Source: an uncultured Alphaproteobacteria bacterium
GTDB taxonomy: Bacteria > Pseudomonadota > Alphaproteobacteria > Rs-D84
Assembly (NCBI GenBank): GCA_947367055.1
Contig: CANBCI010000003.1
Location: forward strand, 161,508-225,507
Length of the DNA: 64,000 nt
Reading direction: 5' to 3'
The notes under the pieces are model-generated. The model made no database searches. It saw nothing but the letters and a program-made list of their open reading frames with translations, and was not told the origin of the DNA. Shown here piece by piece: positions 2,209-55,435 of this stretch. Within the stretch, counting starts at the first letter, position 1; the number at the start of each line of letters is the position of its first letter. The position numbers and the translations under genes were made by a program.

Positions 2209-2528
2209 AACGCCCGCACAGGCGGTTTTGTATAAGGGTTACTAGCCCCATTTGCAGCAGGACAGCCCATTGCAATCATATTGTATCATATACATTTACA
2301 ATTGCAACCGCCAAAATCTTTTAGAAGACCGGGGCGGGAGTCTACAGACACATCTTTGGTATGTGTTGGTTTATTCAATATATTCACCAACCTCCCAACC
2401 CCGAATGGGTTGAAAGTTTTACGCCTGTACGGGCAACCAAAGACCGAGTCTGTATATTCTCGGGCAACAGAAATCCTGTTGCAATCGGTACTATATCCTA
2501 AATATCCGGAATATGCAATAAAATAAAA

Positions 2529-2653
2529 CTGGATTGCCGCGGTCGCACTGCTCCCTCGCAATGACAAGGCCGAGATTAAACGCCCGGCAAACGAACGTTC
2601 GTATATTAAGTTCTTAATCCCTTTGTCATTGCGAGCGTAGCGAAGCAATCCAG
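2529..2653. repeat. nested-palindrome MITE/REP-like element, long variant (outer IR CTGGATTGC/GCAATCCAG, inner IR CGCAATGACAAG/CTTGTCATTGCG, core TTAAGTTCTTAATCCC)
   Basis: The inverted repeats are visible directly. It is a paralogous copy of the element at 3079-3172. Confidence 0.7.
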
Positions 2654-2678
2654 TTAATAACACTCGCAACACAAATTA

Positions 2679-2987
2679 TTATCGTATCCAAAACATATCT
2701 TGTTCAGACAAATCAAGCCAATCGGGATTTATTGATTCTATCAATGCAATTTTATTTTTGCGCGAACCAGATTTTAATTTTTTCTCTCGTTCCAAGGCAT
2801 CATTTACATAATTAAATTCTTCATAATATCCCAATTTATTGCAACCATATTTTGCGGTAAATGATTTTGGGGAAACTTTTGTTTTGTGTTCATGCACGCG
2901 GCGAACAACATCATTAGTGACGCCGACATACAGGGTGCCGTTGCGTTTGTTAAACATAATATAAACATAAAATTTATATTCTTTCAC
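2679..2987 (-). CDS. GIY-YIG nuclease superfamily protein (UPF0213/YhbQ-like)
   Basis: The N-terminal FYVYIM...GTLYVGVTNDVVRRVHEH motif is typical of a GIY-YIG domain. Length is about 100 aa. Confidence 0.7.
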   Translation of the reverse strand: MKEYKFYVYIMFNKRNGTLYVGVTNDVVRRVHEHKTKVSPKSFTAKYGCNKLGYYEEFNYVNDALEREKKLKSGSRKNKIALIESINPDWLDLSEQDMFWIR

Positions 2988-3078
2988 TTATTAAACTATA
3001 TCATATATTAGATTTTATTTCATATTATTTACAGTTGCCATGTGATTTAATAAATTGATTATGCTGCGCGCAATACCA

Positions 3079-11515: not shown

Positions 11516-11694
11516 GGCTGATAATTATAAATATATTTTTTTCATTTGCAAATCAATAAAGGTAGGCACAAATTCGCGTAAATTACCATTTGACCTTAAA
11601 AATCTTATGTGATTTAATCCGTGCTGACGACGGGGATCTCGTCGTTGGGTCTTACTAACCCGCAGTGTTGATGTCAGCGATGACATAAAATATC

Positions 11695-11834
11695 TCCAAC
11701 CTGTTATGCGGTTGGAGTGTGCCCAATATTTTGAATAAGCACGACAATTTCAACACATTGTTAGTAAGCTCCAACCACCAGATTTATTTGGTGGTGTTTT
11801 GTTTGATTAACCGCACAAAACAAGGAGTCTGGCG
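11695..11834 (+). promoter_or_regulatory. conserved structured leader, copy A (P1 CUCCAACC-UGUUAUGC-GGUUGGAG; P2 GUGC/GCAC; terminator GCUCCAACCACCAGAUUUAUUUGGUGGUG-UUUUGUUUG) upstream of PAP2 gene
   Basis: The hairpins and U-run are visible directly. The terminator ends 25 nt before ATG 11835. It is homologous to copies B and C. Confidence 0.5.
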
Positions 11835-12392
11835 ATGTCAAAAAAACTTAATATACTGATGGCGGTGTTGCTGTCGGGGCTGGTTCTGCTGCTGGTTTCG
11901 ACCAGGGCGCATGCCGGCGGACCATTTAGCAGTAAAAACAAACTGGGGGATGTCATGATGGTCATGAGTCCCACATACGCGCTGGGGATGACAATTATGG
12001 CCAAAGATTGGGCCGGGACGCTACAACTTGGCGAATCCATACTGGCCGCCCAGGTGGCCAGCGAGGGTATAAAAGCCCTGGAACTGGAACGGCGACCAAA
12101 CGGCGGGGATAAAAAATCTTTCCCCAGCGGCCATGCGGCGGGCGCATTTTCCGGGGCAATGTTTGTTCACAAAAGGTATGGTTGGAAACCGGCGCTTATT
12201 CCATATGCAATGAGCCTGGTCGCCGGCTGGAGTCGTGTAGAGGTCCGCGCGCATTATTGGCACGATGTTTTGGCGGGGGCGGCGGTATCGGCACTGTTCA
12301 CCTGGGTTTTGGTGGATAAATATGTACCCAAGGGTGTTGATGTCGCGGTCGGCATGGACGGCGCCCGCGTTGGTTTCAAAACCCAGTTTTAA
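11835..12392 (+). CDS. PAP2 family phosphatase (periplasmic/membrane phosphatidic acid phosphatase type 2)
   Basis: It carries the KSFPSGHAAGAFSGAMFV and YWHDVLAGAAVSA PAP2 signature motifs plus a signal peptide. Confidence 0.75.
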   Translation: MSKKLNILMAVLLSGLVLLLVSTRAHAGGPFSSKNKLGDVMMVMSPTYALGMTIMAKDWAGTLQLGESILAAQVASEGIKALELERRPNGGDKKSFPSGHAAGAFSGAMFVHKRYGWKPALIPYAMSLVAGWSRVEVRAHYWHDVLAGAAVSALFTWVLVDKYVPKGVDVAVGMDGARVGFKTQF

Positions 12393-18473: not shown

Positions 18474-18902
18474 ATGAAAAAAATTATTTTGATTTTTGCG
18501 ACAATGCTGTGTGCCTGCACGTTTCAGACCAAGCATCGCGGCTATGTATTTCCGGCCGATTTGGAATCGGAAATTGCGTCAATAAAAACAACCTCTCAAT
18601 TACAGGATGAAATCGGCGCCCCCCAGGTAAAGACAATCTATGGCGATACCGTCTGGATTTATTACGGGGCGGACGAAAATTACCGCGGGCCGTTGAAAAA
18701 AACATACACAAACCGCACGGTTCTGCTGGCCTGGGTTAATGGAAACCGCGTGACACAAACGCGCGTTCTGCACGATGCGGATTTGCCGCACGTCATGATT
18801 GACGAAGGTGAAACGGAAATCCCGGCGGCAATCGAATTGAACGCAATCCAGGAACTGTTTAACAATGTCGGTCGTTTTACACCGGCTGGATTGGGGCAAT
18901 AA
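18474..18902 (+). CDS. bamE: outer membrane protein assembly factor BamE-like lipoprotein (SmpA/OmlA)
   Basis: It has a lipoprotein signal (…MLCAC). Size and pattern are BamE-like. Confidence 0.55.
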   Translation: MKKIILIFATMLCACTFQTKHRGYVFPADLESEIASIKTTSQLQDEIGAPQVKTIYGDTVWIYYGADENYRGPLKKTYTNRTVLLAWVNGNRVTQTRVLHDADLPHVMIDEGETEIPAAIELNAIQELFNNVGRFTPAGLGQ

Positions 18903-18966: not shown

Positions 18967-19503
18967 ATGAAAAAGATATTTTGTTCCATCTTATTGATTG
19001 CCATAACCACAAGTGCACATGCCGCCTTTACATCATGCGGGCCGGGATATGTCTTGGCGACCCATTCCAAAATTGACGGTATTCCCGCCGCCGAATGTCA
19101 AAAATTATGGTGCCGTGATTTGGAAACCGGGAAATCAATGGGGTCTGGCAACGCCGCGGCATCCGGGTATCGCGCAACATCCGCATCCCAGGAACTGTGT
19201 GATGCAAACGGCAATTGCGTCGAATGCTTTGGCGACCGCAAATGGTGCAGTGGCGAAGTCATGGGCGCATGGAATCCGGAATATGGCGCATACACACGCG
19301 GCGGCGACGATACCGCAACATACACATCATATTTAAAGGGTTCGTGCTTTGCATGGCGCCTAGAACAGCCGGACTGCGCAGACGGCAAGACCGCAATTTT
19401 GCAGAACGGCGAATGGATATGCACCACCCCCAGTGTTTCGACCGAGGCCGACCGTGCATCCAGCATACGGCGAACCGGCGGCGCACGACGCATATTGCGA
19501 TAA
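18967..19503 (+). CDS. secreted Cys-rich protein (178 aa, 12 Cys, CGPGY motif)
   Basis: It has a signal peptide MKKIFCSILLIAITTSAHA and a dense Cys pattern. It belongs to the same family as 54944..55435. Confidence 0.6.
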   Translation: MKKIFCSILLIAITTSAHAAFTSCGPGYVLATHSKIDGIPAAECQKLWCRDLETGKSMGSGNAAASGYRATSASQELCDANGNCVECFGDRKWCSGEVMGAWNPEYGAYTRGGDDTATYTSYLKGSCFAWRLEQPDCADGKTAILQNGEWICTTPSVSTEADRASSIRRTGGARRILR

Positions 19504-20184: not shown

Positions 20185-20213
20185 AAAATCCCGCATTTCG
20201 CGGGATTTTTTTA
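20185..20213. terminator. bidirectional terminator AAAATCCCGC-ATTT-CGCGGGATTTTTTT
   Basis: A hairpin lies between the convergent cdnL and the 3-gene operon. Confidence 0.6.
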
Positions 20214-20225
20214 TCGCAGATACAT

Positions 20226-20624
20226 TTACTTTGCCTTCTGCATTTGTGCTGCATGTTGAATCATAGCTGCACGTGCGCGTTCGGATTTCACCACCTGACG
20301 CACCATTTCAACCATAATCAAATTACGATTCCCGCCGCGCCGCATTAGAAAACCGTTACGCGGCACACCGTCTATTTTCAATATTTCTGGTGCGATTTCT
20401 ACACCCAGGTCTGCCGCAATTGCGGCAAATTTATCGCCCGCGCCGGTGCGTGGCACAACAAACATATATTCAACCATTTGACTTGCCCGTGCACCGGTCG
20501 TCACCTCGCGATTGATATAACCATAATCGGCAACAGCATCACTGATTTTTTTATACGTGTCTTCCAAATAAGTCATAATCAGACTGTTTGCAATCCAATC
20601 ACGCGTTTGATTTTTTTCATTCAT
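20226..20624 (-). CDS. hypothetical cytoplasmic protein (132 aa), third gene of secreted-protein operon
   Basis: Its start overlaps the upstream stop (ATGA). Confidence 0.45.
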   Translation of the reverse strand: MNEKNQTRDWIANSLIMTYLEDTYKKISDAVADYGYINREVTTGARASQMVEYMFVVPRTGAGDKFAAIAADLGVEIAPEILKIDGVPRNGFLMRRGGNRNLIMVEMVRQVVKSERARAAMIQHAAQMQKAK

Positions 20625-21301
20625 TTATTTACTCCTATAATTTGCTCATTAGTATAATACCTTTTATATTGATTATGAATTTTTGCCATAGCCTCAATAA
20701 ATCTCTGGCAAGTGGTCGAATCCGCATTTAGCCTGCGTGCAATTTCATCATCACGCAATATAGATTCGCATTCAGTACGAATATCGCCCAACGAAGCCAT
20801 ATCATTTACAGATTGCATATAACCATAAAATGGGTCACTAAATGCCCCATACGCATCACCAAAAACCTCTTTCATAATATTACTGTATTCTAACACGTTC
20901 CATTGTATTTTTGTACTGGTATCATCCAACGCTGCAAAACCGGCTTCTGTATATTTAGTAACCAAATTATTGTGTCTACGAATTGCATCTATGGACGTTT
21001 CCAAACAAACATTGATAGCATTCGGCCCTTGATATACAGACATGCACTGGAATAAAATTTCTGCTGGACTGATTGTTACAACACCGTCCTTTGCATTCAA
21101 GTGCGAATAAAAACTTTTCCAAATCTCGTCAGCCTCTAATATACCATAATTAACACTCCTCAATGCATTAAAAAAAGCTCTTCTCAGTGCGTCTGCATAC
21201 CACCGAACAGGGGTGTGTAAGTCAAGATAAGTTGATGGTGTGTCCGCCATACTTGTGCCAACTATCATTAAAAGCCCAATGGCTGCAATTATTTTTTTCA
21301 T
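20621..21301 (-). CDS. hypothetical secreted protein (226 aa, signal peptide MKKIIAAIGLLMIVGTSMA)
   Basis: It has a signal peptide and is translationally coupled to its neighbours. Confidence 0.55.
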   Translation of the reverse strand: MKKIIAAIGLLMIVGTSMADTPSTYLDLHTPVRWYADALRRAFFNALRSVNYGILEADEIWKSFYSHLNAKDGVVTISPAEILFQCMSVYQGPNAINVCLETSIDAIRRHNNLVTKYTEAGFAALDDTSTKIQWNVLEYSNIMKEVFGDAYGAFSDPFYGYMQSVNDMASLGDIRTECESILRDDEIARRLNADSTTCQRFIEAMAKIHNQYKRYYTNEQIIGVNK

Positions 21302-22194
21302 TTTAAAGCCTCCTCACATCTGTCGGCAACTTCGGCCGCGCGTTTAATTGCAGATATTTGTGTTGCGTTGAACACTGTCGCGGTTACCGATGCAACCGTT
21401 GCACCACCCGCCATTACATTTGCCATAGTATTCAAATTCTTTTCTTTTTGCTCGTCGCCACTACGCACGCTTTTTGAATTGGCCATTACACTAGATATTG
21501 TTCCCGCCAATCCAAGTCCAGCACCAACACCACTGGATGCCGTTGCACCATTCGCACGCTTATTCACACTGGATAAGTTTACGGTAGCCCACATGCCACA
21601 TTCTGTTACAACTTTCTGCGCACGAATTATATCTGCATCTGAATCCGTACCTAATACACGCGCCTGACCCAATACACGCGACAGATTATCAATACCTGAA
21701 ATACAGTTATTAATTTGCGATTGCAAATCACCCTTTATACGGTTTGAACCCGCAATAGCCGCACCAGCAATATTTGTGGCGGTATTTGTTGCCAACAGAC
21801 CCGTACGCCAATTTCCAAGTTTTCTAGATTTTTCATCACCTTTATCATTAAGTGCTGTCTTCATATTTTCCAAATTGCGTGCATAATCCCTCAATTCTTG
21901 TTCAAACGCACGTTCATCTTCAATCTTCAACATTGGCAGTTTTTCAAATGCCTCTAATTGCGCATCCAGCGAAGATTTAGCGACACCAACCGCTGTGGCC
22001 GCGCCACCAGCCACGGCCCCCACCGCGGTCACGCCTGTATTTATGCCAGCCATTGTTTTCATGTCTAATAATTCCGCCGAAATATTGCCACAATTCTGGC
22101 GTACATTATCAAGCGCAGTTGTCAGTTCAGTTGAGGCATATCCAACGGATTCATAACATAACAACAGTGCCGTAATTAAAAATTTTTTTTGCAT
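21298..22194 (-). CDS. hypothetical secreted Gly/Ala-rich protein (298 aa; repeated GxxxG/AxxxA segments)
   Basis: It has a signal peptide, is the first gene of the operon, and carries an AAGAGGG SD. Confidence 0.55.
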   Translation of the reverse strand: MQKKFLITALLLCYESVGYASTELTTALDNVRQNCGNISAELLDMKTMAGINTGVTAVGAVAGGAATAVGVAKSSLDAQLEAFEKLPMLKIEDERAFEQELRDYARNLENMKTALNDKGDEKSRKLGNWRTGLLATNTATNIAGAAIAGSNRIKGDLQSQINNCISGIDNLSRVLGQARVLGTDSDADIIRAQKVVTECGMWATVNLSSVNKRANGATASSGVGAGLGLAGTISSVMANSKSVRSGDEQKEKNLNTMANVMAGGATVASVTATVFNATQISAIKRAAEVADRCEEALK

Positions 22195-22450
22195 ACCGCC
22201 CTCTTTTCAAATTAAAATAACCGTCAATTTAGGAATGACGGTCGGGGAGTTTGCGAAATCAGTTTGCTATTGATTCTGCCGCTTTCGGGAAGCCCTGTTA
22301 TATAACGGCAGCCCCCCGACAATATACTAGTCGGGCGGATTTAACGATGATAAAACAGCTAATAAACCGAATATATTAACGATCTCTAATCACTGTTTCC
22401 CACCGAGCAAACAGGCTCGCAAAAGCCTACAACCCAATTCCCATTGAGTT
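22195..22450 (-). promoter_or_regulatory. long structured 5' leader of 3-gene operon: three-way alternative pairing CCGCCCGAC / GUCGGGGGGC / CUCCCCGAC enclosing CUGCCG...CGGCAG hairpin, then terminator CCGUCA-UUCCUAAAU-UGACGG + U-run 20 nt before SD
   Basis: Complementary segments are read directly from the sequence. A TTGTAA-17-TAAAAT promoter (with TGn) lies at 22458-22486 on the minus strand. Confidence 0.4.
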
Positions 22451-22491
22451 GGTTAATATTTTATCACAAAAGACAATAATTTACAACTATT

Positions 22492-22514
22492 AAATCCCGC
22501 GAACCGCGGGATTA
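22492..22514 (-). terminator. plsX terminator AATCCCGCG-AACC-GCGGGATT
   Basis: A hairpin lies immediately downstream of the plsX stop. Confidence 0.55.
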
Positions 22515-54655: not shown

Positions 54656-54819
54656 TTTCTTTTATCCTTATGTTTTACTGTTCGTGGCATTATAGCAACC
54701 TTTTGCTTGCGCCGCAAATCTTATATTGATATTATTATTTTGTTATCGGGTGTTTCGATAATGGGGTTTAGCGACCCCGTCGTATACGTCGGCACGTCGC
54801 GTTATGACGCGCAAAAAAT

Positions 54820-54943
54820 CTCCAACCCATGGGTTGGAGGGGTGGAAATATCAAAAATACCACCACTATTTATACGATAGTCGCTAACCTCCAACCACAC
54901 AGATTCTGCGTGGTTTTTTCATATGATGTTATGGAGAACGACA
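54820..54943 (+). promoter_or_regulatory. conserved structured leader, copy B (P1 CUCCAACC-CAUG-GGUUGGAGG; P2 GGUGG/CCACC; terminator CCUCCAACCACACAGAUUCUGCGUGGUU-UUUUC) upstream of Cys-rich secreted protein gene
   Basis: Visible directly. The terminator U-run ends about 24 nt before ATG 54944. Confidence 0.5.
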
Positions 54944-55435
54944 ATGAAACAATTTTTTATAGCATGCGCCGGCGCTATTGCAACCGCACAGGCTTTGGCG
55001 GTAATATCACCCCAACAAAACTACTGCATACTTTGCCAAATACCAAACCTGGGAGCAGGCGAAACGATTACATACGCCGATGTATGCTATTCTGATGAAT
55101 TGGCCGATTGCAAGTCTTTTCGTCCGTCCGTTATCGGAACTACAAATCATGTGCAAACTCTTTCAAGTGGAAAACTGAATTGCACCGTAAATTACAATAC
55201 CGTCAGTGCAACATGCACTAAAACCATATCCTATCGGTGCGAAAGCGGATACTTCGGCACCCCGACCAAAGGAATCTCTGGATGCACCAGTTGCGCCGAC
55301 GCCACCGGAAACAGCAATGCAACATCAAAGGTGGGTGCAACCGCAATCACCGATTGCTATATACCGGCCGGCAACTCCGACGAAGACACAACCGGACATT
55401 TTTCATATACCGACGATTGCAAATATTCAAACTAA
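54944..55435 (+). CDS. secreted Cys-rich protein (163 aa; CESGYFG…C EGF-like motif)
   Basis: It has a signal peptide MKQFFIACAGAIATAQALA and 14 Cys. The start is at 54944 (GGAGAA SD), not the track start 54923. Confidence 0.6.
   Translation: MKQFFIACAGAIATAQALAVISPQQNYCILCQIPNLGAGETITYADVCYSDELADCKSFRPSVIGTTNHVQTLSSGKLNCTVNYNTVSATCTKTISYRCESGYFGTPTKGISGCTSCADATGNSNATSKVGATAITDCYIPAGNSDEDTTGHFSYTDDCKYSN

Follow-up and report, generated by a model that had tools for sequence, protein, structure and literature searches.

A 257-nt leader RNA upstream of a three-gene operon (genes A, B and C) was analysed in a 64,000-nt stretch of DNA (the window) from an uncultured alphaproteobacterium of the order Rs-D84 (assembly GCA_947367055.1, contig CANBCI010000003.1, positions 161,508 to 225,507). 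The leader, which lies at about 22451-22195 on the minus strand with a predicted transcription start site near 22451, is on the comparative evidence one copy of a previously undescribed structured RNA family in Rs-D84 ('Ca. Enterousia'), a group on whose RNA elements nothing was found in the literature. In total about 100 copies in two sequence variants were collected, and the window alone harbours four full copies and one remnant. The result goes beyond the sequence-only reading from which the analysis started, as the element is multi-copy and not peculiar to the operon of gene A. We consider it likely that the leader is an effector-dependent transcription attenuator that terminates by default and represents a new cis-acting family.

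The leader contains mutually exclusive, covarying helices

The sequence-only reading had proposed a near-consensus promoter, three mutually exclusive complementary segments enclosing a perfect hairpin, and an intrinsic terminator just upstream of the Shine-Dalgarno (SD) sequence. All these parts were recovered (Table 1). The promoter consists of a -35 box TTGTAA (22486-22481), a 17-nt spacer, the dinucleotide TG (22466-65) and a -10 box TAAAAT (22463-22458), and it aligns with the conserved extended -10 element TGATATAAT of related leaders. The three segments, termed regions 1 to 3, are CCGCCCGAC, GUCGGGGGG and CUCCCCGAC, the hairpin is formed by CUGCCG (22311-22306) and CGGCAG (22281-22276), and the terminator by ACCGUCA (22242-22236) and UGACGGU (22226-22220). 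The latter is followed by UAUUUUAAUUU, an interrupted U-run that stops 15 nt ahead of the ATG. Folding of the leader is clearly better than that of dinucleotide shuffles (z = -4.05, 0 of 200 equally good). What the sequence-only reading had missed are a pseudoknot formed by the loop of hairpin H2 and the four further copies of the element in the window.

The family shows the following order of parts: the extended -10 promoter, H1, H2, an optional H3 with an A-rich linker, region 1, a loop of 4-8 nt, region 2, P2, P3, the strand J3/1, region 3, the terminator with its U-run, a spacer of 15-30 nt with the SD sequence, and the start codon. Region 2 can pair either with region 1 (helix 1:2, the anti-P1 hairpin) or with region 3 (helix 2:3, P1). 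The 3' strand of P1 and the 5' arm of the terminator have the bases ACC in common, and P1 and the terminator are mutually exclusive in silico. Counterparts of H1 in other copies have different yet complementary arms, as judged by eye, since MAFFT loses the register of the arms. In the family H2 reads GGGGyG-7 nt-CCC and the P2 loop is conserved (gAAUAUAUUGAAUAAg). This A/U-rich loop consists of two GAAUA-like repeats in all forms, the P2 tips are capped by tetraloops in other copies, and variant 1 has an extra hairpin inserted at P2. A short form (L058 and L015) lacks H2 and H3, and there H1 itself overlaps region 2. The anti-P1 segment, P1, P2, P3 and the terminator are found in every form, the short one included.

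The junction structure was evaluated in 19 copies of variant 2, in which 95.2% of the cells are paired and 9 pairs are changed on both sides; none of 500 shuffles reached this pairing and covariation. The P2 stem covaries (CG/UA/UG and others), and P3 has another sequence in variant 2 and in the closest orthologs without losing its complementarity. In a set of 31 copies that covers both variants, pairing in helix 1:2 amounts to 94.8%, and 5 of its pairs have changed on both sides. The four outermost pairs of P1 are 97.6% paired with covariation, and the terminator, counted with the ACC of region 3, reaches 96.3% with three covarying inner pairs; each value is far above that of slid controls. 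In addition, regions 1, 2 and 3 change together by lineage, as in the sets CCUCCAAC/GGUUGGAGG/CCUCCAACC, CUCCUGACC/GGUCAGGAGG/CCUCCUGACC, CCCUGAC/GGUCGGGG/CCCCGACC and UUCCCGAC/GGUCGGGAGG/CUUCCCGACC. Because the three segments are conserved and covary together, P2 covaries and the terminator is always present, the riboswitch-like layout suggested earlier, a structured multi-stem domain followed by a terminator platform, proves to be real, and the alignments argue that it is under selection at the RNA level.

In the window, the region around the SD sequence (22195-22210, GAGGGCGG) has a complement in region 1 (CCGCCC) and a partial one in region 3 (CUCCCC). Whichever of the two is not paired with region 2 could therefore mask the ribosome binding site and add translational control.

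A sequence-variable pseudoknot connects the H2 loop with J3/1

The loop of H2 is complementary over 6-7 bp to J3/1, the strand between P3 and region 3, about 110 nt away. In the window UUUGCGA (22423-22417) pairs with UCGCAAA (22256-22250), the TTTGCGA of H2 lying within tgtaggctTTTGCGAgcct; for the closest orthologs of the A leader the partners are UGGUAA/UUACCA. In an alignment of 58 variant-2 copies (A11, columns 13-18 with 216-221) the six core pairs are 100% Watson-Crick in 58/58 copies, with no G-U pair and no mismatch in 348 cells. Each of the four central positions shows three or four pair types among AU, GC, CG and UA; at one of them the counts are AU 23, GC 12, UA 12 and CG 11. The H2 stem covaries too in these copies. 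This alignment was anchored partly by the match itself, and an independent check was provided by comparing each J3/1 with its own and with foreign leaders. The longest Watson-Crick match of J3/1 has a mean length of 7.09 nt in the 158 nt upstream of it in the same copy versus 5.21 nt in the leaders of other copies, and in most of 89 copies inspected by eye it falls in the H2 loop.

Otherwise near-identical orthologous leaders differ by several paired substitutions in the pseudoknot (e.g., UAAGAAC, UCAUAAC and UCGAAAC), which could reflect either recombinational swapping of leaders or selection for distinct codes. In the second unit of L132, a locus with tandem units, the H2 loop UGAGAAC mismatches its own J3/1 (GUUAUGA) and matches that of the first unit (GUUCUCA).

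Copies, variants and distribution of the element

For the collection of copies two covariance models were used, R1 for the 3' module and R2, built separately, for variant 2. The latter variant, the commoner one, was also retrieved by R1; it has GGUUGGAGG/CCUCCAACC as P1, a shorter P2 and a different P3. The leader, whose absence upstream of orthologs had been set beforehand as the refuting observation, is conserved there: the closest orthologs of A (62% identity) and many paralogs carry it directly upstream (82-105 bits with the covariance model). With the window leader as query, nhmmer gave matches directly upstream of A homologs in 14 loci (E down to 7e-16). A pattern scan of metagenomes together with R2 yielded 68 further copies from rumen, gut and other metagenome records, and four further copies adjoin prophage-like genes on contigs classed as viral. 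In the window a plain pattern search for GTCGGGGGGCTGCCG revealed no repeat; the other copies surfaced only with R1 and R2.

Just upstream of the remnant in the window (2400-2990, minus strand), a GIY-YIG-type gene (2679-2987) is followed by a non-coding stretch that contains inverted repeats of the type GTCATTGCGAG...CGCAATGAC. One close ortholog of A (L210/L211) has no leader, and in L210 (positions 1-200) the upstream region contains the 3' end of a tRNA gene, a terminator and then a short 5' region. In many other A paralogs a TATAAT box lies no more than about 20 nt from the start codon, so that their leader would be very short or missing. On two contigs classed as viral (L202:5600-12250 and L205:890-8620) copies of the element and an A-B cassette adjoin phage-like genes, which by eye resemble those for tail, tape-measure, late-control-D and lysozyme proteins of phages. 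It may be that prophages lie beside the surface cassettes or carry them.

The element precedes genes for mostly secreted and envelope proteins

In nearly all of the about 100 copies the element lies on the strand of the next open reading frame (ORF), and the U-run ends 15-30 nt upstream of the start codon, which leaves no room for another promoter. Among 52 downstream ORFs with 70 aa or more, a crude heuristic found N-termini resembling signal peptides in 38-39, compared with 18-20 of 52 background ORFs of the window (Fisher p about 2-3e-4). The downstream products are diverse and comprise secreted or Cys-rich proteins, an outer membrane protein (OMP), a PAP2 phosphatase, an ABC transporter and small helix-turn-helix (HTH) proteins. 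They share an envelope theme and point to no obvious ligand. On the basis of its position, the element probably defines a regulon in Rs-D84, most of whose products are secreted or belong to the envelope.

The exceptions without a signal peptide include a small 'PDYPTG' family and a small HTH protein of about 73-110 aa that recurs in about 7 cases and whose match to HTH_31 is below threshold. This XRE-type protein (73-110 aa, most 73-80) is encoded behind a leader without H3 in L047:369-714, L079:603-950, L109, L092, L156, L138 and L155, and it may either regulate its own gene as part of the regulon or be a candidate for the effector.

The window encodes two Cys-rich secreted proteins without family match (18967-19503 and 54944-55435, both plus strand), only the second of which has a leader. 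The gene of the first sits behind a lipoprotein-like gene (18474-18902), which is itself without leader. In metagenomes the element is often followed by genes for similar Cys-rich proteins (...TKCTKCPGK...).

Proposed switching mechanism

According to our model, transcription would begin at the extended -10 promoter and the nascent RNA would fold H1 and H2. Region 1 would pair with region 2 once both have been made, and P2 and P3 would form next. In the OFF route region 3 would remain unpaired and its ACC would join the downstream arm, which would give the full intrinsic terminator and a stop about 15-30 nt before the start codon. Since region 1 is transcribed first, termination would be the default. 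The OFF route is also the computed ground state: with unconstrained folding, the minimum free energy structure of all four window leaders combines the 1:2 hairpin with a complete terminator. When region 2 was made to pair downstream, 21 of 22 leaders became less stable by 0.6-13.8 kcal/mol, and the terminator was shortened or lost; all these energies were computed without the pseudoknot. In the ON route region 3 would displace region 1 and pair with region 2, creating the three-way junction P1-P2-P3, which would take the ACC from the terminator and allow RNA polymerase to read into the gene. The pseudoknot between the H2 loop and J3/1 would tie the 5' domain to the junction.

For read-through, the junction state has to be favoured by some factor, and the leader is therefore read as an ON-type attenuator. 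A postulated effector, which might be a small molecule, an ion or a protein, would tip the balance to the junction by acting at the junction itself or at the conserved A/U-rich P2 loop. These are the most likely sites, because they belong to the parts common to all forms. As J3/1 is hypervariable and the junction has no invariant bases, we lean slightly towards a protein effector or towards binding in the P2 loop. What the alignments and searches show is the conserved structure, the three mutually exclusive helices, the pseudoknot, the many copies and the association with genes; from these we infer which way the switch works, that an effector exists and that transcripts terminate in vivo. With one such device in front of many genes for mostly secreted and envelope proteins, the targets would form a regulon. 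That the family is a new class of complex-fold riboregulator, by which one signal gates a large part of the secreted and surface proteome of these gut bacteria with reduced genomes, is a broader reading that we find plausible without quite favouring it. In its boldest version, the variable, strictly Watson-Crick 4-nt core of the pseudoknot would have a function rather than result from neutral drift, and would serve as an 'address' that prevents cross-pairing or lets specific RNAs open specific leaders.

Evaluation of the model and alternative explanations

Several points weigh against the attenuator model. The ACC/GGU overlap of P1 and the terminator is consistent with the data but invariant, so that covariation gives it no independent support. 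In helices 1:2 and 2:3 much of the covariation stems from a few lineage splits, mainly that between variant 1 and variant 2. The pseudoknot is compatible with both folding states, so that the structure does not decide on a role in switching. About two thirds of the A genes have no detectable leader and about one third carry a copy. The junction strands have few invariant unpaired bases (J3/1 is hypervariable), which is atypical of a small-molecule pocket. The effector is a postulate, which makes riboswitch a candidate designation, and termination and read-through are predicted by in-silico folding. Finally, L132:130-1010 contains four complete tandem units, three of which have no ORF; only the last one precedes an ORF (84 aa), and the RNA can exist as a stand-alone transcript.

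The last observation would fit well if the units were stand-alone small RNA (sRNA) genes, whose products of about 200 nt act in trans, for example by CCUCC/GGAGG pairing or pairing of the variable heptamer, with the position upstream of genes being secondary. Every unit indeed has its own promoter and terminator, the remnant in the window has no gene, and one H2 loop in L132 matches the J3/1 of its neighbour instead of its own. However, tandem attenuators are known from other systems, nearly all of the about 100 units stand on the strand of an ORF 15-30 nt downstream without room for a promoter, and the variable heptamer finds its complement within its own molecule. The conserved competition 1:2 / 2:3 / 3:4 suits a switch in cis and would be unneeded in a trans-acting sRNA. 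We regard sRNA genes as an unlikely explanation, although both roles could coexist.

It is improbable that the leader is just a constitutive structural 5' untranslated region, i.e., a stabiliser, insulator or processing signal with the hairpin as a leaky terminator or protective stem. An effector is a postulate of the attenuator model, the U-run in the window is interrupted (UAUUUUAAUUU), and pseudoknot and hairpins would provide a nuclease-resistant 5' end; but three mutually exclusive helices that are each maintained by compensatory changes are hard to explain for a static structure, and the short form (L058 and L015) retains exactly the competing elements and loses the rest. Even less credit is given to conservation at the DNA level, with the palindrome CCTCCAACC-N-GGTTGGAGG as operator of a dimeric HTH repressor (e.g., the XRE-like protein of about 75 aa) or the unit as a mobile promoter cassette, which we consider very improbable. 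The inverted repeat is perfect, small XRE-type HTH genes follow about 7 copies, and the unit is multi-copy with some copies bordering prophage genes. Nevertheless, helix 1:2 has more G-U wobbles than true mismatches, only RNA makes sense of the covariation seen in P2, in P3, in the H2 stem and in a pseudoknot with partners 110 nt apart, and the terminator and the strand-specific placement relative to the gene point to RNA as well. For a mobile cassette, terminal repeats and target-site duplications are lacking.

Comparison with known RNA systems

A scan of the whole window with 4,227 Rfam models at gathering threshold, including all known riboswitch classes, T-box and leaders, gave only 4 tRNAs and nothing in the leader. 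With E values up to 10, three copies of the element showed chance-level matches apart from a sub-threshold one to sRNA-Xcc1 (RF02221) at 22233-22320 on the minus strand, whose 27.5 bits (E = 0.011) stay below the gathering threshold of 53, so that the leader is not assigned to this family. Variant-2 copies gave no match to RF02221. sRNA-Xcc1 is described as an integron-encoded trans-acting sRNA of Xanthomonas (PMC2996969). It resembles the element in a G-rich/C-rich stem closing around two hairpins, with AUA..AA in the first one, whereas the leader element precedes a gene without an integron and has a 5' domain, a pseudoknot and a terminator.

As in riboswitches in general, a conserved and covarying structured domain is located in the 5' leader and is, in silico, mutually exclusive with a terminator. 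The latter has the features of an intrinsic terminator, ACCGUCA/UGACGGU plus UAUUUUAAUUU with a covarying stem in 31 copies. The arrangement of four consecutive segments with mutually exclusive pairings, the last pair being a terminator just upstream of the SD sequence, is like that of trp leaders and ON riboswitches, and as in attenuator platforms the 2:3 helix encloses the structured domain. Leader units in series also occur in tandem glycine, TPP and T-box elements. However, unlike trp leaders the family has no conserved leader peptide, unlike known riboswitches it has no known aptamer sequence (Rfam), and unlike known platforms its 2:3 helix closes a three-way junction that is tied to a 5' hairpin by a sequence-variable pseudoknot.

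In the S-adenosylmethionine riboswitch SAM-I (S-box), P1 closes a multi-helix junction, a hairpin loop forms a pseudoknot with a strand of this junction, and P1 competes with the expression platform. The leader shares all three features. SAM-I, however, has a four-way junction with conserved ligand-contacting bases and turns genes OFF, whereas the leader has a three-way junction, a hypervariable pseudoknot and OFF as its computed default; sequence similarity to SAM-I or a corresponding Rfam match was not found in the leader. In the case of c-di-GMP-I/GEMM and cGAMP riboswitches one device is repeated before many genes of surface and extracellular proteins. Similarly, the element is repeated in front of envelope, secreted and adhesin-type genes, in the manner of a regulon, but the fold differs and RF01051, RF01786 or related models gave no match at any threshold.

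Leader-peptide attenuation was rejected because there is no conserved frame: AUG and UUG codons near region 2 lie in different frames and would encode unrelated peptides (by eye). An SD sequence at the 5' end of the leader was not seen in the copies inspected by eye. ANTAR sites are two tandem hairpins with hexaloops (A1, G4), and RAT is a hairpin of about 29 nt that overlaps a terminator. Motifs of the ANTAR, RAT, TRAP or PyrR type were not seen by eye either, the loops being 14-16 nt in P2 and 7-13 nt in P3.

The A-B-C operon and its products

The operon downstream of the leader is organised as previously proposed, with three genes coupled by ATGA overlaps (21301-21298 and 20624-20621) and N-termini that resemble signal peptides in A and B and not in C, in line with two secreted proteins and a cytoplasmic one. 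The upstream gene plsX ends with its own terminator (22493-22513) and another terminator closes the operon (Table 1), which makes it a self-contained unit. The statement that the products belong to no recognisable family holds true in searches of Pfam, NCBIfam, PHROGs and PDB sequences for A, B and C, which are all lineage-specific and unannotated. More than 1,500 homologs of protein A, none of them named or characterised, come from metagenome-assembled genomes of gut and rumen that carry the label Alphaproteobacteria or 'Candidatus Enterousia'. Among 1.84 billion representatives a profile search retrieved only 427 relatives, all of about 300 aa. With word-indexed homolog searches 8 homologs of B and 2 of C were found.

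The AlphaFold2 (AF2) model of A is all-helical but too poor to use (predicted local distance difference test score, pLDDT, 47.7). That of B is good and helical (pLDDT 78), and no fold match to it was found in the PDB (best E = 0.8, template modelling score at most 0.22). As the family and fold searches gave nothing usable, the ideas of a VirB5 protein, a chaperone or a pore-forming toxin among the three products are without support.

In every one of about 80 loci the gene directly downstream of A, at a distance of -4 to +4 nt, encodes a signal-peptide protein of 207-1332 aa and widely variable sequence, and C-like 'DYGY' proteins occur in a subset of loci only. Therefore, the conserved cassette consists of A and a variable secreted B, and C is not part of it. 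The cassette presumably acts at the cell surface.

Table 1. Features of the window with their positions (1 to 64,000) and strand.
Feature	Position	Strand	Description
Promoter of the A leader	22458-22486	minus	TTGTAA-17-TGnTAAAAT
H1	22430-22451	minus	5'-terminal hairpin CAACUCAAU-GGGA-AUUGGGUUG, predicted by folding
H2	22413-22428	minus	hairpin AGGCU-UUUGCG-AGCCU; loop and 3' edge are the 5' strand of the pseudoknot
Variable middle domain	22339-22412	minus	CGGUG, two ...AUCGUUA segments, variant-1-specific hairpins
Region 1	22330-22338	minus	CCGCCCGAC; pairs with region 2 (anti-P1 hairpin)
Region 2	22312-22320	minus	GUCGGGGGG; 5' strand of P1
P2	22276-22311	minus	stem CUGCCG/CGGCAG, internal loop UUAUAUAACA/GAAAG, distal GGG-CUU-CCC
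P3	22257-22275	minus	hairpin AAUCA-AUAGCAAAC-UGAUU
J3/1	22250-22256	minus	UCGCAAA; 3' strand of the pseudoknot, partner H2 loop
Region 3	22241-22249	minus	CUCCCCGAC; 3' strand of P1, last AC(C) also base of the terminator stem
Intrinsic terminator	22209-22242	minus	ACCGUCA, loop UUCCUAAAU, UGACGGU, then UAUUUUAAUUU
SD sequence and spacer	22195-22204	minus	AGAGGG, before ATG 22194-22192
Gene A	21298-22194	minus	298 aa; signal peptide, four invariant Cys, Gly/Ala-rich hydrophobic helices; lineage-specific family
Gene B	20621-21301	minus	226 aa; secreted, all-helical; partner at B position variable in other loci
Gene C	20226-20624	minus	132 aa; without signal peptide; 'DYGY' family; in a subset of loci
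Operon-end intrinsic terminator	20185-20209	minus	
Copy 1 (variant 1)	22211-22322	minus	3' module; before gene A
Copy 2 (variant 2)	11590-11834	plus	promoter and leader; 3' module 11705-11806; 74.3 bits
Gene after copy 2	11835-12392	plus	PAP2 phosphatase (Pfam)
Copy 3 (variant 2)	54703-54943	plus	3' module 54827-54925; 75.4 bits
Gene after copy 3	54944-55435	plus	Cys-rich secreted protein; start at 54944 likely
Copy 4 (variant 2)	2067-2307	minus	3' module 2095-2197; 67.5 bits
Gene after copy 4	1482-2066	minus	OMP beta-barrel (OMP_b-brl, Pfam)
Degenerate fifth copy (remnant)	2317-2405	minus	without own gene; directly upstream of the copy-4 promoter; 30.3 bits

Significance for Rs-D84 bacteria

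Organisms of the order Rs-D84 have genomes of 0.75-1.0 Mb without tricarboxylic acid cycle and respiration (PMC12306168). Bacteria of the Enterousia type are uncultured, have few recognisable transporters and probably depend on host or neighbour cells (PMC12306168). The density of the element in the genome studied here, with five copies in 64 kb of about 0.9 Mb, and its position before many genes for secreted and surface proteins are part of what gives the finding its weight. Orphan riboswitch-like RNAs with this degree of covariation are rare and usually lead to new ligands or regulatory proteins. The family is in addition a clean natural case of three-way strand competition combined with a sequence-variable pseudoknot, which is useful for RNA design, and the work on the leader also flags a large unannotated two-gene surface cassette of a conserved A and a variable secreted B. 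Once found, the trigger of the switch would show what these gut bacteria sense and how their surface is controlled.

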